A stretch of 43,145 bases of DNA from positions 1-43,145 of the forward strand of contig JBDRFG010000119.1 in assembly GCA_043819135.1 (NCBI GenBank). Direction: 5' to 3'. The notes beneath the pieces were generated by a model. It was given only the letters and a program-made list of their open reading frames with translations, was not told where the DNA came from and did no database searches. Shown one piece after another: positions 1,656-32,351 of this stretch (position 1 is the first letter of the stretch; every line of letters starts with the position of its first letter). The position numbers and the translations under genes are program-made. The DNA is from Candidatus Eiseniibacteriota bacterium (GTDB lineage: Bacteria; Joyebacterota; Joyebacteria; Joyebacterales; Joyebacteraceae).

Positions 1656-2126
1656 GTGGGTCTGAAGACCAGAGACTACATGACGACGGACGTGGTGTCG
1701 GTGGGACGGGCGGCCAACGTGGCCGAAATAGTCGCCCTGTTGAAGAAACACCGCATACCCGGCGTCCCTGTTGTGGATGAGGACAAACGCCTCCTCGGCC
1801 TCGTGACGCACGAGGAGCTCATCAATATCTTCATACCGCACTACCTCTCGATGTTCGATGAGCTGGCGTTTCTTGACGACCTCGGTGAGATCGAGGCGCA
1901 GACCATGGCCGAGATCGAACCGACTCTGTTTCTTGCCGAGGACATCATGGCCACAAACCTGATCACCGCCGGCCCGTCGACGTCCATCATGAAGGTCGCC
2001 GCGCTGATGGTGAACAGGAAGCTCGTGCTTGTCCCCGTCGTCGATGAGGACAGACGCGTCGTCGGGGTCCTGAGCAGGAACGACGTGAGTTCCGCGCTGA
2101 CGTGGGCGGCATCGGAGGAGAGTTGA
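1656..2126 (+). CDS. CBS-domain (Bateman pair) protein
   Basis: Two CBS repeats: DYMTTDVVSV...GVPVVDEDKRLLGLVT and EDIMATNLITA...VPVVDEDRRVVGVLSRND. Confidence 0.92.
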   Translation: MGLKTRDYMTTDVVSVGRAANVAEIVALLKKHRIPGVPVVDEDKRLLGLVTHEELINIFIPHYLSMFDELAFLDDLGEIEAQTMAEIEPTLFLAEDIMATNLITAGPSTSIMKVAALMVNRKLVLVPVVDEDRRVVGVLSRNDVSSALTWAASEES

Positions 2127-5100
2127 TGGCACGGAGACACATGCCGGCCATGGGGGCGGCGCTCGTTGCCGTCCTTCTGATTTCTGGCGCTCTCGCAACC
2201 GGACCGAGGGTGGTGTCCTCGAGCGAGGAGGGCATCGTCCTGACGTACACGCCCGGCAGCGTCGCGCACCGTCTGACGGTGATCGGCGACAGCGCGTACA
2301 CGGCTCTTGATATCGAGGGCGCTGACGCGATGGGTGTTCCCGGCGCCCCCGACGTGCCCGTCGTGCGCCTGACGCTCGCTGTGCCGGACTGCCGCGACGT
2401 AGAACTCACCGTCTCCGCGAGCGGCCGTTCAACCGTGCGCGGTGTCAGGGTCATTCCCGCGCTCTCCACGGTCGAGGTGGAAGAGGGCGAGGTCAGCAGA
2501 TACGAGTACGCCGAGGGCGACCAATACGCGCGTGGTGGCCTCTGGCCTCCATCCGTTGCGTCGATGACCGAGCCCCGTTGGCTGTCCAGACAGAGAGTGG
2601 TACACATAGAACTCCATCCGTGCCAGGTCGACCCGGTGGAGGGCACGATCGTCTCACACGGGACGATCGAGGTAAGGCTCTCGTTCCACGGAGTGCGGGC
2701 GCACAGGCCGCCCCGAAGCACGTCCGAGCGGTGGGAGCGGCTCTATCGGTCAGTCCTCGCCAACTACGAGAGCGGCAGAGCGTGGCGGACCCTTCCCGTC
2801 GCGGCGAAGGGACGTCCGGACGAGTATTTCGACACGTCCGCCAACTGGCTCAAGCTCACGATCGACAGAGCCGGCATTTACGACGTCGGGCACGATGACC
2901 TGACGGCGGCGGGCGTCGACCCTGCCACGGTCGACCCTGCCTCGATCCGCGTGTTCACCGGGACAGGGCTGGAGCTTCCTCCGGATGTCACCGAGCCGCG
3001 GCCCGACTGGATGGACGAGTGCACGATCAGTGTGGCCGGAGGCGACGACGGCGTGTTCGACGAGAGCGACCGCGTGGTCTTCTACGCCCTGGGCGTCGAC
3101 GCGTGGTCAGACGAGCTCTCGCTCGATTCCCCGGACGAGGCTTACTACGAGAATCGCTTCGCGGGCTCGGCCGTATACTGGCTGACCTGGGAGAGCGACG
3201 GGACTCCCTTCGCCGCTCCGCCTCTCAGAATGGCGGACGACGACCTTCAGGACGACCCCGACCCCTTGTCTGTCACCGACTACCGGGCAAGGGTTCACTA
3301 CGAGGAGAACTTGTACGATTTTCTGGGGCGCGGTGACAACTTCTACATGTACGAGATGAAGCAGCGCTCGCCCGAGCACCGCCTCTTCCACGAGAGGCTC
3401 ACGCACGTCGTCACGGATTCCACAGGACGTCTCAGAGCCCGTGTGGACGGTAACTCCACCATCTACTTGGTGAACCCGGACCACGTGGTCCACTTCTACC
3501 TGAACGACATCGAGGCCTACATAGGAGAATGGGAAGGCCGCTCGACGCTCGTCTTCGAATCGGACGGTCTCCCGTTCAGGGACTATCTGCCCCTGGAGCC
3601 GGGGTCCGACTACAACACGTTCGACGTCTTCGTCCTCAGAGCGGACGAGGACCACGAGATGGACAACGTCATCATAGACTGGTTCGAGTTCGAGTACTGG
3701 CGAGAGCTCTGGGCCGACCTGGACTCCGAGGACGGCGTTGACGACGACCAGCTGGCGTTCGGGAGTTCCGGGCGGACCGGCGTGCTCGAATACTCTCTGG
3801 GCGGTTTCGAGACTGATGATGTCTCCGTGTTCAAGATCGTCGACCGCAACACGGTTCTCAGCGTCCCCGGGGTCTCGACGTCCGAGTCGTCCCGGGGCTT
3901 CGGAGCGACGTTCCAGGACGACGTGGCCGACACGACGTCGTACATCGCCGTCTCGGACGGCGGGTATCTCGTACCCGGTGTCGAACGATACGTTCACGCC
4001 GGACTCCGCGCGGATACCGAGTTCGACTACGTCATGGTCGTCTACGACGGGTTCTACGACGAGGCGCTGAGGCTCAAGAGCCACAGGGAGAGCGCCGTCG
4101 GCGGCGGCTACGACGTCCGCCTGGTCAGGCTGTCTGACGTCTACAGCGAGTTCTCCTGGGGCGTCGCCGATCCGGCGGCCATCAGGGATTACCTGAAGTA
4201 CCTCTCCGACAAGGCCGTCGTGCCTCCGACGCACGCCCTTCTCGTGGGCGACGCCACGTTCGACTACCGCCACTACCTGACTACGGGCATCGACTGCTTC
4301 GTCCCGACGTACTACACCGGAGGATCGTTGTACTGGCCCACTGATTTCTGGTTCGTCGGTTTCGACGCCGTCACCCAGTACGAGCCGGGAATGGCCCTTG
4401 GCAGGCTGTCAGTCCGATCTTCGAACGAGCTCTCCACGATCATCGACAAGATCGAGCGGTACGAGACCGAGACCGTGCAGGGGATCTGGAAGAACACCGT
4501 GGTCCTTGTGGGTGACGACGAGTGGCGCGACAACCAGGGCGACGTCAATCCGATCTTCGAGTACTCGCACACCGAGCAGGCCGAGCAGATAAGCCGGGAC
4601 ATTCTGCCCTGGCCGTTCGACAGGCGGAAGATCTATCTCATGGAATACGAGTTCGACGCCGCGTGGCACAAGCCGGGCGCCCGAACGGACCTGCTCAAGG
4701 CGTGGAGCGACGGCGCGCTCATTCTCAACTACACGGGACACGGCAACGAACTCCTGATGGCTCACGAACTCATCTTCCTTGTTGACGATATTCCGACGCT
4801 CAAGAACATCGACAGGCTGCCTCTCTTCTTCGCCGCGTCGTGCAGACTCAACAAGTTCGACATGCCGAATTCCGATTCCGTCGGCGAGCTCCTGGTCAAG
4901 TCGCCCGTGGGAGGGTCGATAGCGTCCATAGGCAGCACGAGGGACTCGGGCTCAGGCTACAACTCGGCGCTGAACAGGAGCTTCCTCAGGAAAACGTTCG
5001 GCGAGCAGAGGGACGCTCCGACGGCATATCTCGACTTCGGGCAGGCCTTGCAGGCCGGGTTCATCGAGTCGGCGGCGCACTATTCCATATGGGTCAACAA

Positions 5101-6175
5101 CACCAAGTTCGCGCTGGTGGGCGATCCCGCAACGACCTTCGTGTCGCCCGGCGGTTGGGGAGAGATAGAAGAGGAAGGCGTGTCGCCCATGCGCAGGCGT
5201 GATCACGTTACGGCCACCGGCCACAACGCGGGCTCGACCGCGGATGAGAGCGGTGTCGCGCTGGTCCGCGTGTGTGACACGTCCGACACCAGCGGCTACG
5301 TCCAGCCACAGTCCCAGTACCGGGTTCGGTATCATCTGCCGGGCGAGGTCGTCTTCGAAGGGGCCGCCGTCGTCAGCGACGGCGACTTCACGAGCGAGTT
5401 CGTCGTGTCAGCGCTTGCCGAGGAAGGGCCGTACGGCCGTGTCCGTGCCTACTTCTACGACGGGGAGAACGACGGATCGTTCTCACTCGAAGAAGTGACG
5501 ATCGCCGACAGCGTCGAGGTGTCGGACATGAGCGGGCCCGACATCTCCCTGTTGTTTGAGGGCGGAGGAACGTCCGTCCTGCCGGGTGATGAGCTGGAGG
5601 TCCGGCTGTCGGACGAAAACGGGATCAACCTGGTCAACCGCGACCCGGGAGACGGCATAGTCCTCCTGGTCAATGGGGGAGAGGATTCGACGGACGTCAC
5701 CAACCAGTTCGTGTACGACCTCGGGAGCTTCCGCGAAGGTGCCATCATCTACCCGCTGCCGTCACTGGGGTTCGGGAACCACACCGTCTCGGTCGCCGCG
5801 CGTGACAACATGGGCAACCGGTCGTCCAGGAGTCTCCAGTTCGAGATCGTGGCGTCCGCTGAGTTCACGATCCGCAACGTGGCGAATCACCCGAATCCGT
5901 TCCCGAACGGGGGGGACCTGGGAACCTACATCATGTTTCAGATCCCCGTGAGCGCTGACGTGACCATCGACATCTTCACGGTGGGCGGGCGGCGGCTGCG
6001 ACACATCGGTGATGTGGCCGGCACGGCGGGCGCCAACGAGGTCTACTGGAACGGTCGTGACGCCGAGGGCGACGAGCTGGCCAACGGGGTTTACCTGTAC
6101 AGGATCCACGCGGTGTCGAACGAGTACCGCGGAGACAAGGCAGAGGTAATCGGTAGAGCCGTGATAATGAGGTAG
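2126..6175 (+). CDS. porU: PorU-like type IX secretion sortase / gingipain-family C25 cysteine peptidase with propeptide and C-terminal FlgD-Ig/T9SS-type domain
   Basis: ATG 2126 overlaps the CBS stop (TGATG) with GGAGG RBS; signal peptide; C25 propeptide-like GAPDVPVVRLTLAVP; VYSEFSWG..DP.AIRDYL, LLVGDATFDY, LGRL; catalytic NYTGHG (~4727-4744) and AASC (~4841); GDP end of catalytic domain; CTD HPNPF...IFTVGGR...WNGRD..G..LANGVYLYRI. Lies directly upstream of porV. Confidence 0.88.
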   Translation: MARRHMPAMGAALVAVLLISGALATGPRVVSSSEEGIVLTYTPGSVAHRLTVIGDSAYTALDIEGADAMGVPGAPDVPVVRLTLAVPDCRDVELTVSASGRSTVRGVRVIPALSTVEVEEGEVSRYEYAEGDQYARGGLWPPSVASMTEPRWLSRQRVVHIELHPCQVDPVEGTIVSHGTIEVRLSFHGVRAHRPPRSTSERWERLYRSVLANYESGRAWRTLPVAAKGRPDEYFDTSANWLKLTIDRAGIYDVGHDDLTAAGVDPATVDPASIRVFTGTGLELPPDVTEPRPDWMDECTISVAGGDDGVFDESDRVVFYALGVDAWSDELSLDSPDEAYYENRFAGSAVYWLTWESDGTPFAAPPLRMADDDLQDDPDPLSVTDYRARVHYEENLYDFLGRGDNFYMYEMKQRSPEHRLFHERLTHVVTDSTGRLRARVDGNSTIYLVNPDHVVHFYLNDIEAYIGEWEGRSTLVFESDGLPFRDYLPLEPGSDYNTFDVFVLRADEDHEMDNVIIDWFEFEYWRELWADLDSEDGVDDDQLAFGSSGRTGVLEYSLGGFETDDVSVFKIVDRNTVLSVPGVSTSESSRGFGATFQDDVADTTSYIAVSDGGYLVPGVERYVHAGLRADTEFDYVMVVYDGFYDEALRLKSHRESAVGGGYDVRLVRLSDVYSEFSWGVADPAAIRDYLKYLSDKAVVPPTHALLVGDATFDYRHYLTTGIDCFVPTYYTGGSLYWPTDFWFVGFDAVTQYEPGMALGRLSVRSSNELSTIIDKIERYETETVQGIWKNTVVLVGDDEWRDNQGDVNPIFEYSHTEQAEQISRDILPWPFDRRKIYLMEYEFDAAWHKPGARTDLLKAWSDGALILNYTGHGNELLMAHELIFLVDDIPTLKNIDRLPLFFAASCRLNKFDMPNSDSVGELLVKSPVGGSIASIGSTRDSGSGYNSALNRSFLRKTFGEQRDAPTAYLDFGQALQAGFIESAAHYSIWVNNTKFALVGDPATTFVSPGGWGEIEEEGVSPMRRRDHVTATGHNAGSTADESGVALVRVCDTSDTSGYVQPQSQYRVRYHLPGEVVFEGAAVVSDGDFTSEFVVSALAEEGPYGRVRAYFYDGENDGSFSLEEVTIADSVEVSDMSGPDISLLFEGGGTSVLPGDELEVRLSDENGINLVNRDPGDGIVLLVNGGEDSTDVTNQFVYDLGSFREGAIIYPLPSLGFGNHTVSVAARDNMGNRSSRSLQFEIVASAEFTIRNVANHPNPFPNGGDLGTYIMFQIPVSADVTIDIFTVGGRRLRHIGDVAGTAGANEVYWNGRDAEGDELANGVYLYRIHAVSNEYRGDKAEVIGRAVIMR

Positions 6176-6241
6176 CCTTGTGTGGCCGTCCGACGAGCCG
6201 GACCGCCCGGCAGGCTGCCGTTGAAAGGGGACATGGACGCA

Positions 6242-7228
6242 ATGACAAGAAAGAGACTGCCGATCGCACTGGTTTTGGTCGCGCTCTTCGCGCTGCCCGC
6301 CGCCGCCCAGGTGTCAATCGGCGGAGCGCAGTCGCTCTACATCCAACCGGGCGGACGCCCGGCGGGGATGGGTGACGCCTTCGTATCGATAGTCAACGAC
6401 GCAAGCGCCTGCTGGTGGAATCCCGCCGGCCTCGCTTTCCTCGAGCAGACGTACAACGTGTCGCTGATGCACTCACGACTGGTTCCGGACTGGGAAGACG
6501 TCTACTACGAGTACGCCGCGTACGCGCAGAAGATCGAGGGGCTGGGTACCATCGGGGGGTCGCTCATCTATCTGACCTACGGCGAGCAGCAGGCCACCAC
6601 GCCTGAAGACTCGACTCCCTTCGCCACCTTCCATTCCTACGAGGTCATACCCTCGATCGCCTACGGGGCCATGCTGGGGGACAACATAGGTATCGGCATC
6701 AACCTCAAGTTCATCTACGTGGACCTGGCGCCCGCGGAGGTCACGGTCGAGGGGCAGGACGGTTCCGGAGCGACCTTCGCCGCCGACTTCGGCGCGCTGT
6801 GGCGACTGATGGACGGCAAATGGAACGTGGGCGGTGCGGTGCAGCATGTCGGTCCCAAGATCGCGTACATTGACGAAGAACAAAAGGACCCGCTGCCCAG
6901 GAATCTCAAGGTGGGAACGTCTTACAGGCTTATCTCCGACGAGATGAACGAGCTGACCGTCTCGGCCGACTTCAACAAGTCGCTCGTCATCGTAGAGGAC
7001 ATCACGGACCCGACTCTCGGAGTCGTACTGAACGTCGGCGCGGAGTACCGTTACTACGACCTCTTCGCGCTTCGTGGAGGGTACGTCTACGACGAGGACG
7101 GCGATGTCAAGGACTTCTCGTTCGGCATGGGGCTCAGCTACAGGAATTTCTCATTCGACATCGCCCAAGTACCGCAGCACAAAGACTTATCGCGACCGTT
7201 CAGATTCTCGATGACGGCGGCGTTCTAG
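6242..7228 (+). CDS. porV: PorV/PorQ-family outer-membrane beta-barrel (T9SS shuttle-like)
   Basis: Signal peptide; L.I.PGGRPAGMGDAFVSI.NDASA.WWNPAGLAF signature; GPKI.Y, DPLP.NL..G, GAEY.Y...FALRGGY; C-terminal Phe. Start 6242 (or 6233) chosen from the AAGGGGA RBS. Confidence 0.88.
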   Translation: MTRKRLPIALVLVALFALPAAAQVSIGGAQSLYIQPGGRPAGMGDAFVSIVNDASACWWNPAGLAFLEQTYNVSLMHSRLVPDWEDVYYEYAAYAQKIEGLGTIGGSLIYLTYGEQQATTPEDSTPFATFHSYEVIPSIAYGAMLGDNIGIGINLKFIYVDLAPAEVTVEGQDGSGATFAADFGALWRLMDGKWNVGGAVQHVGPKIAYIDEEQKDPLPRNLKVGTSYRLISDEMNELTVSADFNKSLVIVEDITDPTLGVVLNVGAEYRYYDLFALRGGYVYDEDGDVKDFSFGMGLSYRNFSFDIAQVPQHKDLSRPFRFSMTAAF

Positions 7229-7277
7229 CAGACGCCGCGCGGGCGCGGTACGAATCTGAGAGAGGTGTGATCCCACA

Positions 7278-10200
7278 ATGACCCGTACCCGTAACCTCGA
7301 GTTCCGCGCGGTGACGGCGCTGGCGGTCGTTGCAGCTATTGCGCTCGCGCCGCCCGCCTTCGGCGGCGACAAGCTCATCTGTCGCAAGGGCGAGCCTCCG
7401 GCCGGCGCAGCCGTCCACGGGGCCCCCAAGATCTTCGCTGACGAGGTTCCGGAAGTCGGCGCGGTCGAACTCGCGGCCTCGCGCGGGCGCAGTCGCGACG
7501 GCAGGACCACCGTCCGGCTTCTGGCCCTTCGCGTGGCCTTTCTCCCGGACAGCGATTCCCGCAGCACCGGCAACGGCGGGTTCAACCTCTCGGAGTGGGA
7601 CGGGGCGACCTTCGACGGACCTCCACACGACCGCGAGTATTTCGAACTCCACATGACGGCGCTCGCCAACTACTATGCGTCGGTCTCCTACGACAACCTC
7701 GCTATCGAGTTCGACGTCTTCCCGGCGGCTCCGGAGTCGGCCTACGTGCTCCAGCACGACATGGGCTACTACCACGACTACTCGGAGGCGCAGGTCTGGT
7801 ACGTGAGCCAGGTGGAAGCGTTCACCAGGGACGCCTTCGCCGCGGCCGACACGACCGACTCGATCGACTTCTCGCAGTACGACGGCTACGTGCTGTTCCA
7901 CGCGGGCGCCGACTGGCAGAGCGACATCAATCTCGATTCCCCGTTCGATCTCCCGTCCGCGCACATCATGCTCGGCGAGCCGATTCTCGTGAACGGCGGC
8001 GCCACGGAAGTGTGGGGCGCGGCGATAATGCCGGAGACGTCCAGCCAGGACGGGTTGGCCATGGTCCTGAACGGGACGCTCGCCCACGAGGTGGGACATA
8101 TTCTCGGCCTGCCCGACCTATACAACACCTCCAACTTCTTCCCGGCCATCGGCATGTGGGGGATCATGGATTCGGGGGGCAGCATCGGCATGAACACGGC
8201 TTGGGGATGGGCCTACGGGCTGATACCCGCGTCACCGTGCGCGTGGTCGAAGGAGTACATGGGGTGGCTCGACCCCGTCGTGCTTCTGGGCGACACCGAC
8301 AACGTCCGCGTCACGGCGACCGAACTCAGGAGGCCCGGGTTCCGGCTCTTCAAGATACCCATTACGAGTGACGAGTACTTCCTCATCGAGAACCGACTGG
8401 ATGACATCGGACATGACCTGACCGTTGTGATCGAGCAGGAGCGCGGCGTCGTGCTGGGTCCGGTCGACCCCGACTGCGTGGATCCCATCTGCCCCGTTAA
8501 TCACGAGTACGACTTCCTGCTGCCCGGGCCGGGCATGCTCATCTACCACATCGACGACACGCGGGTCAAACCGGGGCTGATGCCCTGGGACACGGTCAAC
8601 GCCGACCGCCACAGGCTCGGTGTCGCCGTCGAAGAGGCCGACGGCATCATGGACCTCGGGAACATCATGAGCTTCTACTGGTCGGGGAGCAGATACGACC
8701 CGTTCTTCGCCGAGAACAACGGGACCTTCTCGTGGGACACCTACCCCTCGACCGACACCAACATGGGGGGCAAGACGTACGTCACGGTGGACAACATCTC
8801 CGACCCCGGAGACGTCATGACCATGGACGTCCGGTTCGACAGGTGGAAGGACGGGTGGCCCACCGACCTTGAGGAGCCGCTAGGCTCGATGACGCCCCGC
8901 GTCGCCGACATCGACGGTGACGGCGACGGCGAGGTCATCGTGGCGACGAGGAGTGGCGCCGTGTACGCGTGGCATCACGACGGTACGTCGGTCATCCCGA
9001 CGTGCGGCGTGTCCGGTCGCTTCGCGGTCGTACCGGGCGGCATAACACGCTCGCCATCGGCGGCCGACCTCGACGGCGACGGCGACGCGGAGGTCATCGT
9101 CGCCTCCGCGGCCGGCTCTCTGTACGTCTGGGATCACACGGACGACGACACCGACGGCTACGCCGATCTGCACTCGGCCGGCTACCCGCTCGCGCTGGAC
9201 GGACCCGCCAGCTCGGCGCCGGTCGTCTCCGACTTCGATGAAGCAGAGGGGTTAGAGATCGCCGTAGCTTCCGCGGGGGGAGACCTCACCGTCGTGGACG
9301 GCGAGGGGGTGCACCTGGGCTCCTCGCCCTATTCGTTCGGGCACCTGGTTCTTGAGGACGTGTGCGTGGCGGCCGGGGACCTGGACGGCGACGGACTCTC
9401 GGAGATCGTGACGTCAACCACCAACCGCGGATGGGTCGCGGCTCTGAACGCCGACGGAAGCTCCGTCGATGGATGGCCCGTCGTCGTCGATTCGTGGGAG
9501 CAAGAGACGGCGCAGATCGTCATCGGGGACATCGACCGCGCGCCCGACGCCTCTCCGGAGGTAATCGTAGTGGGTTCGGGCGGGGCGGTTCATGTGTGGG
9601 ACAGCTCCGGAAGTGAACTCCCGGGATGGCCGATCGACCTTGGCAGGAGAGTCGGCGCCCGTCCGTCGCTCGGCGATCTGGACGGAGACGGGTATGTCGA
9701 GATAGTTATTCCCGCCGGTCCGTCGCGCGTCGAGGGATTGCGGGCCAACGGCACGCGCGTCGAGAACTGGCCTCTCGTGACCGACGGAGGGGACAGCACG
9801 CGTCCGGCTGGCGCGTCGGCGCTGATCGGTGACATGGACGGGGACGGCGCGCTCGACGTGCTGTCGGCCGGTCCGGGCGGAAGCATGTTCCTCTACAACG
9901 CCGTCAGCGGGAAGCTGACTCCCGGGTGGCCGTACTCGTCAGACCCCTCGCTCGGCACGCCGTGGGCGGGCGACATCGACGACGACGGGCAGCTGGACAT
10001 CCTGATCGCGGGCGCCTCGGGGCGCGTTCTACTGATGGGGCTGCCTTACGCGCACGAGGACGGCGCCATGGTCTGGTCGACCGAAGGCGGGAGCGCGTCC
10101 GGAACGGGAACCTACCCCGACTCGATCCTGCCGGGCACTCCCGTCGCGACGGGGGAGCTCCTGTCGCCTGCGCGGACGTACTGCTACCCCAATCCTGCCG

Positions 10201-10469
10201 AGAGGTCTGACCTCACCATCAGGGTTTTCCTGGAAGAGGAGGCGGACATCGAGATCGAAGTATTCGACGTCTCCGGAGAGATCGTCGCGCGGTTCGAACG
10301 CGAGGGTGTGCTGACGGTCAACGAGATCGCCTGGAGCACGTCGGGCGTCGCGAGCGGCCTCTACATGGTGCGCGTCGAGGTCAGCGAGCCCGTCGACAGC
10401 TACTACGCCCAGCACGTCGGGCAGATCAGGTCCGAATCCAAGACAATGAAGGTCGCGGTCATCAGATAG
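7278..10469 (+). CDS. M6-family (immune inhibitor A-like) zinc metalloprotease with FG-GAP repeats and T9SS type A-like CTD
   Basis: Signal peptide; FHAG; zinc motif HEVGHILGLPDLY (8085-8117); Met-turn GIMDSG; AWSK.YMGW; EYFLIENR; GMLIYHIDD; about 8 DxDxDG repeats; CTD YPNP...VFDVSGEIV...ASGLYMVRV...KTMKVAVIR. Confidence 0.88.
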   Translation: MTRTRNLEFRAVTALAVVAAIALAPPAFGGDKLICRKGEPPAGAAVHGAPKIFADEVPEVGAVELAASRGRSRDGRTTVRLLALRVAFLPDSDSRSTGNGGFNLSEWDGATFDGPPHDREYFELHMTALANYYASVSYDNLAIEFDVFPAAPESAYVLQHDMGYYHDYSEAQVWYVSQVEAFTRDAFAAADTTDSIDFSQYDGYVLFHAGADWQSDINLDSPFDLPSAHIMLGEPILVNGGATEVWGAAIMPETSSQDGLAMVLNGTLAHEVGHILGLPDLYNTSNFFPAIGMWGIMDSGGSIGMNTAWGWAYGLIPASPCAWSKEYMGWLDPVVLLGDTDNVRVTATELRRPGFRLFKIPITSDEYFLIENRLDDIGHDLTVVIEQERGVVLGPVDPDCVDPICPVNHEYDFLLPGPGMLIYHIDDTRVKPGLMPWDTVNADRHRLGVAVEEADGIMDLGNIMSFYWSGSRYDPFFAENNGTFSWDTYPSTDTNMGGKTYVTVDNISDPGDVMTMDVRFDRWKDGWPTDLEEPLGSMTPRVADIDGDGDGEVIVATRSGAVYAWHHDGTSVIPTCGVSGRFAVVPGGITRSPSAADLDGDGDAEVIVASAAGSLYVWDHTDDDTDGYADLHSAGYPLALDGPASSAPVVSDFDEAEGLEIAVASAGGDLTVVDGEGVHLGSSPYSFGHLVLEDVCVAAGDLDGDGLSEIVTSTTNRGWVAALNADGSSVDGWPVVVDSWEQETAQIVIGDIDRAPDASPEVIVVGSGGAVHVWDSSGSELPGWPIDLGRRVGARPSLGDLDGDGYVEIVIPAGPSRVEGLRANGTRVENWPLVTDGGDSTRPAGASALIGDMDGDGALDVLSAGPGGSMFLYNAVSGKLTPGWPYSSDPSLGTPWAGDIDDDGQLDILIAGASGRVLLMGLPYAHEDGAMVWSTEGGSASGTGTYPDSILPGTPVATGELLSPARTYCYPNPAERSDLTIRVFLEEEADIEIEVFDVSGEIVARFEREGVLTVNEIAWSTSGVASGLYMVRVEVSEPVDSYYAQHVGQIRSESKTMKVAVIR
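8900..10040 (+). repeat. About 8 FG-GAP/DxDxDG calcium-binding repeats (probable beta-propeller) inside the M6 protease
   Basis: ADIDGDGDGEVIV, ADLDGDGDAEVIV, SDFDEAEGLEIAV, GDLDGDGLSEIV, GDIDRAPDASPEVIV, GDLDGDGYVEIV, GDMDGDGALDVL, GDIDDDGQLDIL, interleaved with GWP/NWP/GYP. Confidence 0.85.
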
Positions 10470-10477
10470 GTGCGCGC

Positions 10478-11320
10478 ATGAAGTTCCTTCCGGTCCTCGT
10501 CGTGACAATGATGCCGCTCGCGGCCGGACCCGCCGGGGCCGGTGAGACCGACGCGGGCGGGGACGCCGCGGTGGGGTGGGCCGCGGGCGCACGCGCGCGT
10601 TTTGTAGCACCGGAGCTGGTTCTCATTTCGTCGCTCGACGCGCGCGCCGAGCTGCTCGAGGCCGGAGCGGGAGGACATGAGCCGGGCGCGGATGATCACG
10701 ACCCCGCGCTCATGCTGATGGCGTCACTGGCCGTACCCGGCGCGGGACAGCTCATTCAGGGCAACACGCGCGGCTACCTGTTCCTGGCGGCGGAGGTGGC
10801 GTTCTGGGGCGGATTCTACCTGCTCGAGAGCAGGGGAATGGACGAGCGCGACGAGTATGAGACCTTCGCGGACGACCACTGGGATTTCGCGGCCTACGCC
10901 GCATGGTACGACGCGACGTGCGTCGATTGTCCGGACTGCGACGAGTATCTGTGCCGGCCGCTCGCCGACTACGGCACTCAGGAATACTACGAGGACATCG
11001 GCAAGTACGCCACATACTGGCGGTGGTGGACGATCGACGGTGACGAGACCTACATCGACTGGCGGGAATACAGCACGATCGACGAAGCGTTCCGTGACTC
11101 GTACTACGACATGCGGGGCGACAGCAATCGACACCTGAAGCAGGCCCGCTACGCCATGACGGCCGCGTTTCTCAACCACGTGGTGGCGGCGGTGGACGCA
11201 TTCCTCACTGCCAGGTCGGGAGGTTCTCAGTACTCCGACTCCGGCAGCGACCTTGGTATCGAGTTCGACGTCGCCGACGGCGGTGACGGGCTCCGCTGCG
11301 CACTCACGGTGAGGTACTGA
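10478..11320 (+). CDS. Exported hypothetical protein, DUF5683-like (paralog A)
   Basis: Signal peptide; SLAVPGAGQL..G...RG..FLAAE; CxxCxxCxxxxC; YYEDIGKY; NHVVAAVDA; terminal beta-hairpin ending ALTVRY. Confidence 0.65.
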   Translation: MKFLPVLVVTMMPLAAGPAGAGETDAGGDAAVGWAAGARARFVAPELVLISSLDARAELLEAGAGGHEPGADDHDPALMLMASLAVPGAGQLIQGNTRGYLFLAAEVAFWGGFYLLESRGMDERDEYETFADDHWDFAAYAAWYDATCVDCPDCDEYLCRPLADYGTQEYYEDIGKYATYWRWWTIDGDETYIDWREYSTIDEAFRDSYYDMRGDSNRHLKQARYAMTAAFLNHVVAAVDAFLTARSGGSQYSDSGSDLGIEFDVADGGDGLRCALTVRY

Positions 11321-12165
11321 TGAAGAACCGAACGTCAGTTGCAGTCTCCATTCTGACCCCTGCGCTTCTCCTGGCTGCCCTGGCGACGGCGGACGCGGAC
11401 ATACGGACGGAGAGCGCTCGGGGGGGCGAGTACGTGGGCGCGCGCCTTGCCGAATCGGGTCTGTCGCTGTCGGACGACACACCCGTCAGGGCCGTGGAAG
11501 CGAGACCCTCCTCAGGCTCGTCCGGCGGTGGCGGCCAGGACGCGAAGAACCCGATGGTCGCGTTTCTCCTGTCGTGCTTGATTCCTGGCTGGGGTGACGT
11601 CTACGCGGGCGAAACGACCCGGGGGCGCTGGTTCATGGCGACCGAGGCCGCGATCTGGGCAGGATACGGCACCTTCCGGATCCAGGAGGGCATGCGGAAG
11701 GACGACTACGAGGAGTACGCCCAGATCTTTGCGGGGACCGTCGCGGAGCCGAATTCCGACCACCTGAGCCACATGGGCGACTACATTCGTAGCGAGGGAG
11801 ACGACAGCTACAATCAGTTGATCCGACGCGAGGCGAGAAGTCTGTTCCCCGACGATCTCGAGGCGCAGGCGGCGTACCTCGCGGAGAACGGGTATTACGG
11901 CGATCTTGCCTGGGACTGGGGCGGAAAGGACCGATTCTACGAGTATAGGGAGCTTCGGCTCGCCGCCTCGAGGTCCGACAGAAATGCCTTCTACATGACG
12001 GGCCTGGCGCTCCTCAATCGGGCCCTCTCCGCGATCGACAGCGCGTGGATGGCCAGGCGTCACAACGCCGGTGTCCGCGGCGAGCCCGGGACGCGCTTCT
12101 CCGTGGTCCCGCAGATTTCGGACGGCGACGTAGGCGCCCGCGCGACGCTCGAAGTGTCGTTCTGA
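11320..12165 (+). CDS. Exported hypothetical protein, DUF5683-like (paralog B)
   Basis: TGATG-coupled to paralog A; signal peptide; SCLIPGWGDVYAG...RG..FMATE; WDW; NRALSAIDSA; ends ATLEVSF. Confidence 0.65.
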   Translation: MKNRTSVAVSILTPALLLAALATADADIRTESARGGEYVGARLAESGLSLSDDTPVRAVEARPSSGSSGGGGQDAKNPMVAFLLSCLIPGWGDVYAGETTRGRWFMATEAAIWAGYGTFRIQEGMRKDDYEEYAQIFAGTVAEPNSDHLSHMGDYIRSEGDDSYNQLIRREARSLFPDDLEAQAAYLAENGYYGDLAWDWGGKDRFYEYRELRLAASRSDRNAFYMTGLALLNRALSAIDSAWMARRHNAGVRGEPGTRFSVVPQISDGDVGARATLEVSF

Positions 12166-12229
12166 CGCTCGCATTCCCCTTCTGTTCAGGCTGCTCCCCG
12201 GGAACCCGGCATTCACGGAGACAATCGCC

Positions 12230-13228
12230 ATGTGGACCTACCGGAGAAGGTCTATCCACCGGCGGACGCTGACGATGTTCGGCGTCGTGGCGGCCGTGCT
12301 CGCGTTGGTCGCCGCAACCGCGGCGCGTCCGGCATTGGCCGATGACGCGGCCGTGCCGCGGCCCGTTGGCTCGTCGAGGCCGGGACGCGTCATTACGAAT
12401 CTAGTCGTGACCGGCGAGCTGCCGGGCACGAGCGAGCTGGGCATGAGAGCGCCCGAGGCGGTGGCCCTCGACCACAGGGGCAACGTGGTCATCGCGGATA
12501 CCGGCAATCACAGGGTGCTCGTCGTCGGGCCCGACGGAACGCTTGTCGACGAGTTCGGCGGTTACGGCTGGGACGAGGACCGACTGGACACTCCAGGTGA
12601 CATCTGCGTCTACCGGGGCTTCTACACCTACGTGCTCGACGAGGGCAACCGCAGGGTCACGCGGTACGACGTGGATGGCGATTACGTCGACCTCGTGGTC
12701 GCCGAGGGTGAAGCCGGCAGTCCGGTCTCGATCGCCGTCGGCCCTTCCGGCGGGCTCCTGCTGGTGGACACCGACACCCAATCGGTTCTGTCCTACTCGC
12801 AGTTCGACGAGAAGCTTGCGCCCTTTGGGCGGTTTGGACTGGACGCGGGCGGGTTGCTCGCGCCCAGTGACGTCGCCGTAGGTCCCTCGCGAGAGGTCGC
12901 CGTGGCGGACCCCCGGCGATTCTCCGTTGAGGTCTTTGACGAGTTCGGCGCCCCCCTATACTCGATATCGTCTCCCGATACGCTCGAGCCCGAGGACATC
13001 GCCTTCGACGCACGCGGGAACGTCCTCGTGATCGACGGACGGCGCAACCGCCTGCTGGCGTTTCCTGCAGGTGGAGGACCCCACACCGCATCTCTTGCGG
13101 GTGCGGGCGACTTCCGATTCACGGCCGTCGCGCCCGGCGCCGCGGGAGAGCTGGTCGTGTTGGACGGCGGCGCCGGGCGCGTTCAGCTGATCGAGATGGT
13201 CTATGGCGCCGATGCCCGTCTACGCTAG
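12230..13228 (+). CDS. Exported NHL-repeat beta-propeller protein
   Basis: Signal peptide (..RPALA/DD); repeats PEAVALDHRGNVVIADTGNHRV, P.DI....YVLDEGNRRV, PSDVAV....VAVAD, PEDIAFDARGNVLVID. Start may be 12275. Confidence 0.85.
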   Translation: MWTYRRRSIHRRTLTMFGVVAAVLALVAATAARPALADDAAVPRPVGSSRPGRVITNLVVTGELPGTSELGMRAPEAVALDHRGNVVIADTGNHRVLVVGPDGTLVDEFGGYGWDEDRLDTPGDICVYRGFYTYVLDEGNRRVTRYDVDGDYVDLVVAEGEAGSPVSIAVGPSGGLLLVDTDTQSVLSYSQFDEKLAPFGRFGLDAGGLLAPSDVAVGPSREVAVADPRRFSVEVFDEFGAPLYSISSPDTLEPEDIAFDARGNVLVIDGRRNRLLAFPAGGGPHTASLAGAGDFRFTAVAPGAAGELVVLDGGAGRVQLIEMVYGADARLR

Positions 13229-16200
13229 GGCTCGTGCCGGAGCGCGGCCGTGGTCGCGTCTGTCGGCCCATACCCCAAGTTCGCCGTCGCGGTCGCTCCG
13301 GGCAGGCTTCGCCGGCGGCGTCTGCGTGGCGCTGCTCGCGCTCCTGCTTCCGACCGTGTCCCACGCGGGTTCGATCGAACGCCGGGGAGGGTTCCGCGAG
13401 CTGTCGGTGTCCCCGGCGGACGCGCTGAACGGCGTCGTGCTGCCCGACGTGTTCGTCATCGCGGGCAGCGACAGCGTCCGCGTCGATGGCGAGCTCCTGG
13501 CTCGAGGCGCGGACTACACGATCGACTACGACACGGGCTCGGTCACGATAGAGTCGGCGATCCCCGACGGCGGCGCTGTTCTCATCACCTACCGCTACAT
13601 CCCCCTTGAACTAACGAGGTTCCACCGGCGAGCCGTGCTCGAATCCCTTGCGGCGTTGCCCGCCGGCTTCGCGGACGACGCGCTCCTGCTCGAACGTCCC
13701 GACGCCCGAGAGGACGCTCGTCCTTCGGCGCACGGGCTCTCGATAGGGGGGGCCAAGACGTTCGGCATCACCGTCGGCTCGAACCGCGACGCGAGCCTGG
13801 AGCAGTCGCTCCGGTTGAACATCTCGGGGCGAGTGACGCGCGACGTGTCGGTGGCCGCCTATCTGTCCGACCAGAACACACCTCTGGTGCCGGAGGGAGA
13901 CACGGAAGAACTCAGAGCTCTGGACAAGGTGCTGATCGAGATCGAGGGAGAGAACGTCTCCGCCACAATGGGGGATTACGCTCTCGAGATAGCGGGGGGC
14001 CCGCTGGCGGACTTCCGACGAGACGAGACCGGCGCGAAGCTGACGGCGTCGCTCGGCCGGACGAGCTTCACGCTCGCCGGGGCGCGTGCGACCGGCCAGT
14101 TCAACACGCTGACGTTCCGCGGAGTGGACGGGAAACAGGGCGCGTACCTCCTGACCGACGCGTCGGGAGGCGCGGGCGTGACGGTCGTCGCCGGCAGCGA
14201 GCGAGTGTGGATCGACGGCGTCAGGATGACTCGCGGGCGCGACAACGACTACGTGATCGATTACTCCGGGGGCGCCATCGAGTTCACGGAGCACCGTCCC
14301 GTTGTCAGCGAGAACGAGATCACGGTCGACTACGAATTCACGGCGGGCGACTACGCACGTGACACCTACGCCGGCAGGGTCTCGCTGTCGAGCACCGGCG
14401 GGGCGGCCGGGATCGGTCTTTCCTTCTTTCGCGAGTCGGACGACAGGGACGCATCGGCGTCCGCCGCGTTCTCGTCGAAGGAACTAGCCGTGCTCGCGGC
14501 CGCCGGGGACGATCCGGAGCTCGCGCACGACGACGGCGTCGACTCGGTCGGCGTGGGCAAAGGGGACTACAGCTTTGTGGCGGAGGGCGTCTTCGAGTAC
14601 GCCGGACCGGATTCGGGCGACTACGATCTGCATTTCGAAAGGGAGGACGGCGGAGACTACGTCTACGAGTATGTTGCGGGGCACTACACGTATGTGGGGT
14701 TGGGGGAGGGCGAATACGGACTCGGCCAGACGCTCCCCATGCCCACGGATCACGCGCTCGCCGTAGTTGACGGCCGGCTGGACCTTGCACGTGAGGGCTA
14801 CGTGGAGGTCTCGGGCGCCGTGTCGGACCTCGACCGGAACACGTACTCCTCGCATGACGACGACGACAACCTGGGGAACGCGCAGGTACTGTCCGCCGCG
14901 CTGCCACGCATCGGCGTCGGAGCGCTCGACGGCACCGAACTCGGATTTTCGCTGGACGCTCGCCGCGTCGCCGGTGGATTCCGGGGAGTCGGCCGGTTCC
15001 GGGAGCCGGGCTACGTCGAGCGATGGGAACTCGAGGGGCTCGCGCTCCCCGAAGGGGAAGAGCTGCTCGAGGGCACGTCTTCACTCCTTCTCGGCGGGGG
15101 TGGGCGGGTCGAACTCTCTCACGCCTACCTTACGCGGGGCGACGCGCTCACGTCGAGCAGGACCGAGTTCTCCGCCGACGGCCGGCCCACCGAGGGTGGA
15201 AGAATGTGGAGTTCGGGCCGGTTTGTCGAGTCGCGGTGGGTAGGCGCCGCCGAGGAGGTCCGGAGAGAGCGCACGCTCTATCGGGGAGGCTTCGAGCAAG
15301 AGATCGGTCCCGTGCGCCCGGGCGTCTCGTACGCCCATGACGAGCGCGGCGAGGGCGACAGGGGCGAGCGTTACGACGAGTACGGCGCGTCGGTGGAGAG
15401 CGCGAGGCCGGGGGCGATCTCCTTCGGCGTCTCGTACGCCCGGCGTCTGACGGACCGGACCAACGGTTCGAAATGGAAGCAGGCGTCGACGACTCAGACT
15501 CAGGAGTACCGGCTGGGGACGACCGCGTGGGACAAGCTCCGGCTCGCGGGCAGCGTCGTGCGCCGTCGGGTGGACTTCGAGGAGGGGTTCGAGGACCCCG
15601 CCTCGAGATACGATCTCGCGAGCGTCACGCTCGATCACACGTCGCTCGGCGGTGGCCTGACGGGACAGGTCCGATACTCCGTGACGGCGACCGAGGTGGA
15701 GGAGAAGCAGAAGCTTGTCACCGAGGAGGACGGCGTCGAGATCGTCCGGATCGTCAGGACCGGCGACTACAGACCAGTGACCGACCTCTCGGCCAGCACG
15801 AGATGGAAGTTCAGGCCGGGCACGCGCGGCCGCGGCGGGCGCTCGATGCCCGAGCCGACCGCGTTGGGCCGGTTCCTCTCGACGCTGACCGTGACGAGCG
15901 ACCTCAAGCTGCGCGAGATGACCACGACCGACGAAAAGCGCGGCCTGTACCTGCTCGACCCGTCTGTCATCATGGGCATGGACACGGTCCGGGGCGAGAT
16001 AACCGGTCGGCACGTGGCGCGCTACCTCTCCTCTGGCAGCTCGCTCTCCCTGAGACTGGCGCTCAATACGAAGGACGTTCTCGACAGGAGCTATTCGAAC
16101 GAGAGCACGAGACGGAAGGAGCGCTCCGGCACCGCCGACGTCAAGCTGACTCGCGCGGGCGGCGTGACCTACCGGCTGCAGGGAGACGCCGGAACGCGTG

Positions 16201-16628
16201 AGGAAGACGCCGCGGCCGGCGACAGCTACGAGATAGACGAGCGCTCCCTTCTGGCCGAGGTGGACTTCAGAAAGCTCGGCGACCTGGAGGCCAGGCTGAC
16301 GGCCTCGGTCGGGCGGCAGGACGCGGCGCTCTCGGGTGTGGGGGTCACCGTGTTCAAGGTCACGCCGACCCTGACGTTCAGGCTCGCTGGACGGGGGGCC
16401 CTTTCTGCATCGGTGACGCGCATCGAGGTCGAAGCCTCCGGCGGTACGCTGGACGGGCGCCCGTATCTGGCGGAGGGAAGGCGCGCCGGACAGAGTGCCG
16501 AGTGGCGCCTCGCCGGCGACTACAGGTTCAACCAGTTTCTCACCGGCTCGCTGTCCTATTTCGGAGAGGCTAGGCCCGGCGGAGATCCGCTCCACACGTT
16601 GGACTTCCGGGTCAACGCGTTCTTCTAG
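13203..16628 (+). CDS. Very large outer-membrane beta-barrel protein with two SprA-like 'GSExVxxDG..RG.DY.IDY..G' modules
   Basis: Signal peptide (..PTVSHA/GS); GAKTFGITVGSNRD.SLEQSLRLNISG, LSDQNTPLVPEGDTEEL..LDKVLIEI; long amphipathic beta-strand pattern; ends VNAFF. Start uncertain (13203 or 13212). Confidence 0.75.
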   Translation: MAPMPVYARARAGARPWSRLSAHTPSSPSRSLRAGFAGGVCVALLALLLPTVSHAGSIERRGGFRELSVSPADALNGVVLPDVFVIAGSDSVRVDGELLARGADYTIDYDTGSVTIESAIPDGGAVLITYRYIPLELTRFHRRAVLESLAALPAGFADDALLLERPDAREDARPSAHGLSIGGAKTFGITVGSNRDASLEQSLRLNISGRVTRDVSVAAYLSDQNTPLVPEGDTEELRALDKVLIEIEGENVSATMGDYALEIAGGPLADFRRDETGAKLTASLGRTSFTLAGARATGQFNTLTFRGVDGKQGAYLLTDASGGAGVTVVAGSERVWIDGVRMTRGRDNDYVIDYSGGAIEFTEHRPVVSENEITVDYEFTAGDYARDTYAGRVSLSSTGGAAGIGLSFFRESDDRDASASAAFSSKELAVLAAAGDDPELAHDDGVDSVGVGKGDYSFVAEGVFEYAGPDSGDYDLHFEREDGGDYVYEYVAGHYTYVGLGEGEYGLGQTLPMPTDHALAVVDGRLDLAREGYVEVSGAVSDLDRNTYSSHDDDDNLGNAQVLSAALPRIGVGALDGTELGFSLDARRVAGGFRGVGRFREPGYVERWELEGLALPEGEELLEGTSSLLLGGGGRVELSHAYLTRGDALTSSRTEFSADGRPTEGGRMWSSGRFVESRWVGAAEEVRRERTLYRGGFEQEIGPVRPGVSYAHDERGEGDRGERYDEYGASVESARPGAISFGVSYARRLTDRTNGSKWKQASTTQTQEYRLGTTAWDKLRLAGSVVRRRVDFEEGFEDPASRYDLASVTLDHTSLGGGLTGQVRYSVTATEVEEKQKLVTEEDGVEIVRIVRTGDYRPVTDLSASTRWKFRPGTRGRGGRSMPEPTALGRFLSTLTVTSDLKLREMTTTDEKRGLYLLDPSVIMGMDTVRGEITGRHVARYLSSGSSLSLRLALNTKDVLDRSYSNESTRRKERSGTADVKLTRAGGVTYRLQGDAGTREEDAAAGDSYEIDERSLLAEVDFRKLGDLEARLTASVGRQDAALSGVGVTVFKVTPTLTFRLAGRGALSASVTRIEVEASGGTLDGRPYLAEGRRAGQSAEWRLAGDYRFNQFLTGSLSYFGEARPGGDPLHTLDFRVNAFF

Positions 16629-16653
16629 AACGGAGACACGACGCACGTTGAAG

Positions 16654-18435
16654 ATGGCATCGGACACTCGAAGGGCATCGTGCTCACGGAAGGTTCGCGG
16701 CGTTCCGCCTGCTCGCCGCGTTCCGTCTGCGCGCCGCGTTTCCGCGGCAACCTGTCTCCTTACGGTCGCGCTGGCTCTCCTTGCGAGTTGTCCCGTCGGC
16801 GCTGCCGAGGTAACCTTTGCTGCGGTCGCGGGACACGAGAGCATGCGCGCGCGAGACGTACTCGCCGTTCTCGGATTGGCGGAGGGCTCCGTCTTCGACA
16901 GGGAGACGGTCGAAGACGGCGCCGATTCGCTGCTCAGGCTCTACGCGGACCTCGGGCGCCCGTTCGCGCGCGTGAGCGCCTCGTGGGACTCCACCGTCGC
17001 GGGCGTAGAAGTGTCGATATCGATCGACGAAGGCCCCGATGTCCGACTGGGCGCCCTCGAGTTCCAAAGCATGGGCGGGCCCGTGCCGGACGGACTCCTG
17101 CAGCGCCTCGAGCTCCGGCCGGGCGGGCACCTCACGCGCGGCTCCCTCGCCGGGGACACGGACGCGCTTCTGCGCGGCTACGCGGACGAAGGAAGGCCCT
17201 TCGCCGAGATCGTCCTCCCTAGGTCCGTCGAGCTGTCGGACGACGGCAGGCTCAGCGGTCGGATAGAGGTGAGAGAGGGGCCTGAGACGTGGTTCGGCGA
17301 CGTCGTCGTGGCGGGCAACAACATCACTCGAGAGCACGTCGTCGTGAGGGAGGCCGGCATCGAGCGCGGCGAGACCTTCAGTGAAACGCGGCTGGCCGGG
17401 GTGCGGCCAAGACTGGAGAGGCTAATCTTCCTCGACGCCGTGGAAGAGCCTGTCGTGGCCGTCGACCCGTCGAACGGCGAGGCCACCGTGGGCATCGTGG
17501 TCACGGAGGGCACGTCGAACCGGATCTCGGGCGTTCTCGGCTTCGCCGGTGGTCCCGGCGCGGCCGATGAACTCACCGGGGTCATCGACATCGAGTTGGG
17601 GAACATCGCCGGGACAGGCAGGTCCGCGTCGGCCGCCTGGAAACGCATTCGCGAGAACCAGACCGAGATATCCTTCTCATACACCGAGCCGTGGCTCCTC
17701 GGCGCGCCGGTGGACGTGGGTGTAGCCGGCAGCCAGTCCGTCAGGGACACGTTCTACACGACCACGGAGGGGGACCTCTTAGTCACGGCGCGCGTCGGCG
17801 GGCGCGTCAGACTGACGTGGTCCGTGGGCGCCGAGCGGTACGTGCCCGGCGCGGCCACCGAGTCGACGACCACGAGCGCCAGGACCGCGTTCGCCGTCGC
17901 CTACGACGGAACGGACGCGCCGTGGAATCCGACGTCCGGAACGAGGCTCGGCGCGGGCATCGAGTACGCCGCAAAGGAGGGCGCCGACTCCGGCCGCGAC
18001 GAGAGGTCGGGCACGGTGACCGCCCAGGCTGAGGGCTTCCTCCGGGTCAGAGGGCGTCAGGTCGTGGCCCTCCTGGCACGCGTCGCGGCGCTGGTCAGCA
18101 CCGAGGAGGAGGTGCCGTACCACGAACTCCTGGTCCTCGGAGGCGCGCGCAGCCTGCGCGGCTACAGGGAGGAGCAGTTCCGCGGGACGAGGGTGGCGCT
18201 TGGGTCCGTCGAGTACCGCCTTCTGCTCGGCAGGCGGTCGAGAGCCATCGCGTTCGTCGATGTGGGGTACTGGTACCGCGATGGTTCTAATGTAGCAAAG
18301 GACACGAACTTAGGTTACGGAATCGGGTTGCGGGGCGACACCCGATTGGGTACAATCTCCATCAACTACGGGTTGGGGGAAGGGGACGACCTCCTCGACG
18401 GGAAGCTGCACGCAGGTCTGATCCGCGAATTCTAG
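16654..18435 (+). CDS. Omp85 (BamA/TamA/TamL-like) outer-membrane assembly protein with three POTRA domains
   Basis: Three POTRA-like units ending DEG/REG/TEG (Y...GRPFA in the first two; GN..TR..VV.RE in the third); N.AGTG, SYTEPWLLG; LGGARSLRGY ((V/I)RG(F/Y)-type motif); GYGIGLR; ends LIREF. The ORF-track start 16495 overlaps the upstream gene, so 16648/16654 is preferred. Confidence 0.88.
   Translation: MASDTRRASCSRKVRGVPPARRVPSARRVSAATCLLTVALALLASCPVGAAEVTFAAVAGHESMRARDVLAVLGLAEGSVFDRETVEDGADSLLRLYADLGRPFARVSASWDSTVAGVEVSISIDEGPDVRLGALEFQSMGGPVPDGLLQRLELRPGGHLTRGSLAGDTDALLRGYADEGRPFAEIVLPRSVELSDDGRLSGRIEVREGPETWFGDVVVAGNNITREHVVVREAGIERGETFSETRLAGVRPRLERLIFLDAVEEPVVAVDPSNGEATVGIVVTEGTSNRISGVLGFAGGPGAADELTGVIDIELGNIAGTGRSASAAWKRIRENQTEISFSYTEPWLLGAPVDVGVAGSQSVRDTFYTTTEGDLLVTARVGGRVRLTWSVGAERYVPGAATESTTTSARTAFAVAYDGTDAPWNPTSGTRLGAGIEYAAKEGADSGRDERSGTVTAQAEGFLRVRGRQVVALLARVAALVSTEEEVPYHELLVLGGARSLRGYREEQFRGTRVALGSVEYRLLLGRRSRAIAFVDVGYWYRDGSNVAKDTNLGYGIGLRGDTRLGTISINYGLGEGDDLLDGKLHAGLIREF
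16702..16745 (+). repeat. 18-bp imperfect tandem repeat in the Omp85 signal region (VPPARR-VPSARR-VS)
   Basis: gttccgcctgctcgccgc / gttccgtctgcgcgccgc / gtttccgc. Confidence 0.75.
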
Positions 18436-26372: not shown

Positions 26373-26395
26373 GGCCGGAAGCGCAAGGGAACTCC

Positions 26396-27676: not shown

Positions 27677-27712
27677 CCGCACAAGAGAGCATGTCCATTC
27701 TGGAGGTACGTC

Positions 27713-32291: not shown

Positions 32292-32351
32292 CAATCCCCT
32301 CTCTGATATGTCACCCCTGTGCGGGCAAATGACGGATTTCGATAACTTGGT

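Follow-up and report, generated by a model that had tools for sequence, protein, structure and literature searches.

A putative type IX secretion outer-membrane module with a SprA-related giant barrel and an adjacent Omp85 protein in a Candidatus Eiseniibacteriota genome without a detectable Gld motor

Our analysis concerns a stretch of 43,145 nucleotides from a Candidatus Eiseniibacteriota bacterium (assembly GCA_043819135.1, contig JBDRFG010000119.1; the whole stretch is called the window below), in which eight co-oriented open reading frames at positions 2126-18435 of the + strand form a compact locus for secretion and surface sorting of proteins. The reading we prefer, to which we give a probability of about 0.55, is that this locus supplies the sorting end of a type IX secretion system (T9SS) whose translocon SprA is encoded elsewhere in the genome and whose motor and ring proteins GldKLMN were not found, and that it adds a giant beta-barrel, a paralog of SprA, which would act as a second channel for docking of the carrier PorV and would be folded by the adjacent Omp85 protein. 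In the T9SS of Bacteroidota, cargo bearing a C-terminal domain (CTD) enters SprA, binds PorV and exits by a lateral opening; PorU replaces its CTD with a glycolipid. The genes and the part of the barrel that is homologous to SprA are as follows.

2126..6175, + strand: PorU sortase, a C25 peptidase with a C-terminal CTD (NF033707 at 535.6, cut-off 420; PF01364, PF08126, PF13860)
6242..7228, + strand: PorV-family shuttle barrel (NF033709 at 241, cut-off 90; PF19572; NF033710 at 178, cut-off 250)
7278..10469, + strand: M6-family metalloprotease with FG-GAP repeats and a type A CTD (TIGR04183 at 32.3, cut-off 23; NF052323 at 363, cut-off 600)
10478..11320, + strand: DUF5683-like paralog A, ending in Tyr (family alignment; model with a predicted local distance difference test, pLDDT, of 82)
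11320..12165, + strand: DUF5683-like paralog B, of the same architecture, ending in Phe (PF18935 search and family alignment)
12230..13228, + strand: exported NHL beta-propeller with no beta-signal, whose start may be 12275 (PF01436)
13203..16628, + strand: giant beta-barrel, SprA paralog, with about 38 predicted strands and a true start probably later than 13203 (model, Foldseek, HHalign, coevolution)
13725..14444, + strand: SprA-homologous part of the barrel, strands 1-9 and an inserted small beta domain, model residues 132-371 (HHalign)
16654..18435, + strand: POTRA-bearing Omp85 outside the BamA/TamA clade (PF01103, PF07244; family consensus; tree)

The earlier note on this DNA, made from the letters alone, had described eight consecutive co-oriented genes, five of whose products end in an aromatic residue. 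Both statements hold: the frames are tightly packed, with intergenic gaps of -26 to +109 nt and overlapping stop and start codons at the cbs-porU and DUFa-DUFb junctions, and PorV, both DUF5683-like proteins, the barrel and the Omp85 protein end in F or Y. Start codons are uncertain for the NHL, barrel and Omp85 genes, and a promoter and terminator scan of the locus gave no signal above shuffles. The proposed PorU, PorV (at family level), CTD-bearing M6 protease and NHL propeller were likewise confirmed. PorU keeps the GHG and ASC motifs with the catalytic His and Cys. The PorV protein passes the family model while staying below the strict PorV model NF033710, and it is the top scorer among six PorV-family genes over the cut-off in the genome. 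In the M6 protease, likely a cargo or surface component, the HEVGH motif is intact; an HExxH motif is present in 12 of the 14 M6 homologs listed, the other two being partial matches to the C-terminal part. The family NF052323 (T9SS-dependent M6-like inactivated metalloprotease) shares the combination of M6, FG-GAP and CTD in a gene that follows porU-porV, and an Ignavibacteria-type copy scores 992 against its cut-off of 600; the window copy differs in scoring below that cut-off and in keeping HExxH.

Other parts of a T9SS are found elsewhere in the host assembly, which comprises 2.69 Mb and is 92% complete. A full-length SprA is encoded outside the window on contig C72 (a frame of 2153 aa; TIGR04189 at 500, cut-off 200), so that the 1141-aa barrel is not SprA's replacement. 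SprA matches occur in 24/24 genomes sampled from the phylum, all of one family, with 23 over the cut-off, and SprA is present in 39/50 other barrel-bearing genomes at a strict E<=1e-22. At least six PorV-family genes pass the cut-off, several of them beside cargo genes, and the paralogs stay below the PorQ cut-off. There are 75 CTD matches of the FlgD_ig type (PF13860) in the genome, and the genome-wide CTD count that the earlier note had proposed, made by an iterative search of C-termini, gave 78 CTD-ending proteins (a few of them doubtful) among 1917 of at least 150 aa. A 452-aa PorZ-like CTD protein stands amid polysaccharide genes with a score of 84.6 against a cut-off of 260, and no separate PorP/SprF gene was detected in the genome.

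The motor is a different matter, and here too the earlier note, which had seen no PorKLMN genes, was right. We found no gldK, gldL, gldM or gldN in the window, and models for GldL, GldM and GldN had no matches in the genome. GldK gave short sub-cut-off matches, the best at 58 against 350, which we rejected since they are short, below the cut-off and without gldL, gldM or gldN neighbours. For custom L, M and N profiles, built from 17 gldKLMN operons and searched in 2266 genes from our own gene calling, the top matches had E-values of 0.075, 0.48 and 0.083, respectively. We extended the search to 73 other genomes (23 from the phylum and 50 behind barrel loci, 50 of 79 such loci being covered). 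GldM was found in 0/73, while the same model exceeds its cut-off in 37/151 sampled Bacteroidota genomes; GldN was found in 0/73, with 6/6 positive controls recovered; GldL was found in 0/24 phylum genomes in a search that had no positive control. Since GldL, GldM and GldN are missing across relatives while SprA matches in 24/24, the absence is not an assembly gap. As far as profile searches can detect, then, the host has neither the GldL/GldM motor nor the GldK/GldN ring, and what it has is a T9SS outer-membrane module and not a canonical T9SS. This was partly anticipated in print: in the available text of PMC11705866 only PorV, SprA and Plug are present in Melioribacter and Ignavibacterium, that of PMC12611786 gives SprA as FCB-wide (Fibrobacterota-Chlorobiota-Bacteroidota) except for Chlorobiota, and that of PMC11285876 allows that T9SS may occur in other FCB phyla.

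Several other loci in the host genome touch on this system. On C72, sprA is divergent from lptF/lptG (lptF/G-like genes adjoin sprA in locus L173 too) and is followed by a gene for a 303-aa peptidase-like lipoprotein with a weak DapE match (L008:13186-14097, L009:805-3266), which may have a glutaminyl cyclase-like role. The PorZ-like CTD protein (L198:5629-6984, contig C106) lies near glycosyltransferase-like and sugar aminotransferase genes, which may mark the pathway of the anchor glycan. On contig C23 (L150:2069-16776), genes for a TonB-dependent receptor, a CTD protein and two PorV-family proteins follow one another, and about 5 kb downstream of them, in the same orientation, lies ExbB-ExbD-ExbD-TonB; the latter is most simply the energiser of the nearby receptor and otherwise only a candidate alternative energiser. 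A run on contig C44 (L151:9290-17171) comprises a CTD protein, a PorV-like protein, a helix-hairpin-helix protein of 820 aa that ends in an aromatic residue and a BamG/FadL-like protein. Across the loci surveyed, PorV-family frames of 861, 878 and 502 aa (L029:671-3253, L083:1338-3971 and L149:3412-4917), much longer than usual, suggest fused extra domains.

The AlphaFold2 model of the giant barrel, whose residues are numbered from window position 13332, has a mean pLDDT of 87.4, and a hand count on the model's DSSP string gives 38 wall strands within residues 137-1097, nearly all with alternating hydrophobicity. In a mean-field coevolution analysis of 525 sequences (effective number 283), 629 pairs of non-neighbouring strands served as background; 33 of the 37 pairs of consecutive strands scored above its 99th percentile, among them pairs 7-8 and 9-10, each of which spans a long insert. 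A control with parallel register gave 14/37, which indicates that sequence proximity inflates part of the signal. The wall is thus predicted to have about 38 strands, compared with 36 in SprA; its short strands 3-4 are where a lateral opening could be. In the model the barrel has a wall of SprA's size with most of SprA's cap inserts gone. The earlier description of the barrel as half-size therefore fits the chain (1141 aa, against about 2150-2500 aa for SprA) and does not fit the predicted wall, while the SprA-like motifs it reported are borne out by TIGR04189 at E 1.8e-10.

The relation to SprA emerges from several comparisons. With the barrel model as query, the top four Foldseek matches are all SprA (E about 1e-10 to 1e-8; template-modelling (TM) scores 0.24-0.31). 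With VIA-align, generic porins score higher (Z 17.0) than SprA (Z 13.2), and SprA aligns by far the most residues, 698 across both whole barrels at a root-mean-square deviation of 8.3. Alignment of a profile of 71 barrels with one of 20 SprAs by HHalign matched barrel residues 283-371 to SprA 744-831 with probability 97 and residues 132-337 to SprA 281-558 with probability 87; residues 27-95 also matched with probability 87. Measured against the SprA experimental structures (SprA/Sov, PDB 6h3i, 6h3j, 8gl6, 8gl8), strands 1-9 and the inserted beta domain are shared and homologous, while length, predicted strand number and the missing cap inserts differ. The part of SprA that is kept would be the N-terminal wall, near the PorV site if we judge from the available text of PMC10994853. 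Judged by sequence, the barrel is a paralog of SprA and not a member of the SprA family, with TIGR04189 at 38.7 against a cut-off of 200, a length below 2000 aa and no match to PF14349. Two phage-tail families, DUF2460 and TIGR02217, match the barrel within the small beta domain that SprA has too; these matches are not evidence of a phage.

The barrel is a single-copy, FCB-wide and unannotated protein. About 1900 matching stretches are estimated in GTDB, and at E<=1e-30 the barrels fall into 2635 clusters at 50% identity. Neither Pfam nor NCBIfam has a family of its own for it, a PDB sequence search with the barrel profile returned no matches, the plasmid collection holds no homolog, and in the mostly open-access literature, the available text of PMC11205867 included, we found no description of the family, nor of a T9SS link for the Omp85 protein associated with it. 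In loci L025, L026, L048 and L075 the barrel gene is broken into two or three frames, through sequencing error or real breakage.

The Omp85 protein downstream of the barrel keeps an LRGY loop motif, which fits the (V/L)RG(F/Y) of the superfamily. The earlier note had counted three POTRA domains; Pfam recognises two POTRA stretches, and the N-terminal part has the length expected of three. The protein scores 117 against the 297 cut-off of the BamA model TIGR03303, for which the genome's own BamA scores 477; elsewhere the genome has distinct genes for BamA, for an Omp85 adjacent to TamB and for a propeller-Omp85. The last of these (L197:3544-6786, contig C112) has a TolB-like propeller fused to an Omp85 barrel, a type that sits within the porU-porV-M6-DUF operon in other lineages. 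In a quick tree, BamA and TamB-linked Omp85s form a separate clade (SH-like approximate likelihood ratio test, SH-aLRT, 98), and Omp85s from Flavobacterium-type genomes nest with the barrel-adjacent ones (SH-aLRT 97-99). The window protein probably corresponds to Fjoh_0402 of Flavobacterium johnsoniae, matched by gene order only, which would make the barrel/Omp85 pair genetically testable. Fjoh_0402 is a three-POTRA Omp85 that is not a lipoprotein, has no TamB and adjoins Fjoh_0403-0405 (PMC12045153; PMC12611786); it is named a 'TamA homolog' in PMC12045153, and PMC4104836 hypothesises that a 'BamA-like' Omp85 subfamily acts as assembly factors. Fjoh_0402 and the BamA-like subfamily share with the window protein the character of a non-lipoprotein POTRA Omp85 besides BamA with no flanking TamB, and Fjoh_0402 precedes Fjoh_0403-0405 as members of Flavobacterium type precede susC-susD. 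They differ in that the available text of PMC12045153 and PMC4104836 links them to neither the T9SS nor a giant barrel.

How widely are these genes kept together? Our synteny set comprises 79 loci, the best of 584 candidates from one third of the collection, a choice that biases the set in favour of close relatives; the record titles include Eisenbacteria, Krumholzibacteriota, Latescibacterota, Zixibacteria and Gemmatimonadales. The order porU-porV-DUF-NHL-barrel-Omp85 recurs in 14/51 informative loci, 12 of them with the M6 gene. Omp85 lies immediately 3' of the barrel in 36/67 loci, the NHL gene, whose product has NHL propellers as its best PDB sequence matches, immediately 5' of it in 40/73 loci with enough flank, and both flank the barrel in 33/63. 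The operon is broken up in genomes of KSB1, Calditrichota and Ignavibacteria type. There one piece is porU-porV-M6-(~1000-aa protein)-DUF(-DUF), where the ~1000-aa protein is of the peptidase/WD40 Omp85 type in the four scanned; in L173 and L174 a porU/porV-M6-DUF piece lies about 3 kb upstream of sprA. The earlier note had allowed for mere juxtaposition. We found a full-length SprA elsewhere and, with the motor missing, no complete T9SS, and since the gene order recurs in several FCB phyla the locus is not an incidental juxtaposition.

Co-occurrence was followed in 80 of the 151 Bacteroidota genomes, namely the 37 that exceed the GldM cut-off plus 43 more. The class names of all 80 are inferred, and related genomes among them do not count as independent. 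Both barrel and SprA are present in 59 of the 80, the barrel only in 1, SprA only in 9 and neither in 11. The barrel is present in 29 of the 37 motor-bearing genomes. An ortholog of the Omp85 protein (E<=1e-45) is present in 51/80 genomes, all 51 of them barrel-positive, and in 0/20 barrel-negative ones; a retest of three among the nine barrel-positive misses found an Omp85 in a 572-aa frame in every one, and two retested barrel-negative genomes had none. Among the 21 GldM-positive carriers, eight have this Omp85 gene 4.5-6.8 kb upstream of gldM and in the same orientation, and in the four of these that were mapped it is followed by two or three genes (in L169 DUF4271, hemD and porP) and then by gldKLMN. 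In five Flavobacterium-type loci it stands directly before susC-susD. Barrel and Omp85 thus occur in motor-bearing Bacteroidota too, and the idea that they are lineage-specific substitutes does not hold.

The DUF5683-like pair behaves differently. A pair of paralogs is clearly there; the DUF5683 label given to it earlier is weak, with PF18935 matching one paralog at E 0.0012 and 19.4 against a cut-off of 26.7. Across the family, 16/33 members match at E<=0.05 and the best at E 4e-9. In the model, paralog A consists of a signal peptide, hydrophobic helices, a long helical hairpin and a C-terminal beta-hairpin, and comparison with known folds (Foldseek, VIA) gave no clear match: a kinship with GldM, which ranks first in Foldseek, was discarded as noise (E 1.1, TM 0.14), and the best VIA hits, up to Z 6.7, are generic helical hairpins. 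The pair, nearly always in two copies, occurs in 28/31 motorless barrel-positive Bacteroidota genomes and in 21/22 other FCB genomes, in 0/12 barrel-negative genomes and in 0/37 GldM-positive genomes (20 searched at 1e-12 and 19 at 1e-6, two of them in both). On this distribution, which possibly reflects a single event of gain and loss, the pair is the leading candidate for a function independent of the motor.

How might these parts work together? In our proposal PorU, PorV and the CTD-bearing protease would be the sorting end of a T9SS that uses the SprA encoded on C72. The barrel would likely be an accessory channel that binds PorV or cargo, a second docking site for PorV, both binding and transport being putative functions; the Omp85 protein would likely be its dedicated insertase, and perhaps that of SprA too. 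The NHL propeller may be a periplasmic partner or plug, and the DUF pair may have a role needed only without a motor, for example in carrier release. According to the available text of PMC10994853 and PMC12635249, cargo of F. johnsoniae loads onto SprA-PorV without energy and its release needs the energy chain; T9SS models have the GldLM-GldKN chain pull loaded PorV off SprA (PMC10994853), and particular cargo is served by carriers other than PorV (PMC12618676).

Several observations weigh against this proposal. The closing strand pair, 38 to 1, shows no coevolution signal (1.4, with a background of 1.95), and closure of the barrel is suggested only by structural alignments that cross the seam. 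Homology to SprA is confident only for barrel residues 27-95 and 132-371; three further HHalign segments are collinear with probabilities below 5, and the whole-chain TM score is 0.24-0.31. In none of the 20 motor-bearing loci that were inspected is the barrel gene linked to the Omp85 or NHL gene, and the nine SprA-positive genomes without a barrel imply that it is dispensable for some T9SSs. Since ligA follows the operon in 10/14 full loci, some of the synteny is ordinary conservation of the genome. The DUF pair is missing from three motorless barrel-positive genomes, and the split between DUF pair and motor may, the genomes not being independent, amount to one evolutionary event. Finally, a very divergent motor would be missed by the profiles we used.

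These observations leave room for other explanations. Barrel, Omp85 and NHL propeller could be a separate unit for outer-membrane export or biogenesis, of surface polymers, glycolipid anchors or non-CTD proteins, that handles no PorV-bound cargo and shares only ancestry and operon with the T9SS. We regard this as possible, if on balance unlikely. It would account for the occurrence of the trio without porU/porV in most loci (33/63 for the trio, 14/51 for the full operon), for the loss from the barrel of most of SprA's ~1000 extra residues, and for the Omp85 orthologs that precede susCD in the five Flavobacterium-type loci or lie beside large Ig-repeat proteins in L122 and L187; it sits badly with the near-nesting of the barrel in SprA-positive genomes (59/60), with the placing of Omp85 beside gldKLMN in eight genomes and with the retention of just that part of SprA, the N-terminal wall, that by PMC10994853 would lie near the PorV site. 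We think it improbable, and distinctly more so, that the locus is an old envelope super-operon held together by co-regulation and slow rearrangement, whose remaining genes have no mechanistic link to PorU and PorV. That ligA and accA stay nearby too and that the cluster breaks up in Ignavibacteria and motor-bearing Bacteroidota would fit such a history, but the co-occurrence holds where the genes are unlinked, and the fragments re-associate with sprA or gldKLMN.

There is very little chance, by contrast, that the barrel is the lineage's own translocon, which replaces SprA in a self-contained minimal machine. Its homology to SprA, its predicted wall of SprA's size and its operon linkage with PorU and PorV point that way; the intact SprA of the host, and its presence throughout the phylum sample and in most other barrel-bearing genomes, largely refute the idea. 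What had been suggested earlier, a simplified CTD-dependent machine in a non-Bacteroidota FCB lineage, therefore stands as a conserved T9SS-linked module with 78 CTD proteins and no detectable motor, and falls as a self-contained machine. Compared with the T9SS of F. johnsoniae and P. gingivalis, the host shares SprA, carriers of the PorV family, PorU, type A CTD cargo and a short PorZ-like protein; it differs in lacking detectable GldK, GldL, GldM, GldN and separate PorP/SprF, in its larger set of PorV-family genes, several beside cargo, and in an operon that adds a second SprA-like barrel, an Omp85, an NHL protein and the DUF pair.

The rest of the window holds genes of other kinds. Positions 24708-29250 carry histidine utilisation genes (urocanase, imidazolonepropionase and a split formiminotransferase/cyclodeaminase), an ordinary set. 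Positions 29683-35895 encode a 245-aa and a 624-aa protein, the latter from a T-rich coding region, with no family match over the cut-off, as well as a ComEA-like protein and a PilS/PilR-like sigma-54 two-component pair.

More generally, our preferred reading, of a T9SS sorting end joined to an accessory SprA-like channel, bears on how type IX secretion is built and powered. If true, a 38-strand wall would exceed that of SprA, whose 36 strands are the largest known according to PMC7463736 and bioRxiv 10.64898/2026.03.07.710327 (March 2026), the available text of the latter having 38- and 40-strand labels filtered out as rare or erroneous. A bolder picture, which we offer tentatively and think rather unlikely to hold in all its parts, is that the barrel, with its 38 strands, surpasses every single-chain beta-barrel known so far and serves the T9SS as a second translocon that has an Omp85 insertase to itself, and that the motorless state with the DUF pair is the ancestral FCB T9SS, onto which Bacteroidia grafted the gliding motor, losing the pair. 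In whole lineages SprA, PorV, PorU and dozens of CTD proteins persist without a detectable energy chain, which bears on how such secretion is energised, and the operon names candidate parts. The overlooked single-copy giant barrel and its partner Omp85 also occur in genomes of Flavobacterium type, for which deletion, pull-down and cryo-EM are established routine.

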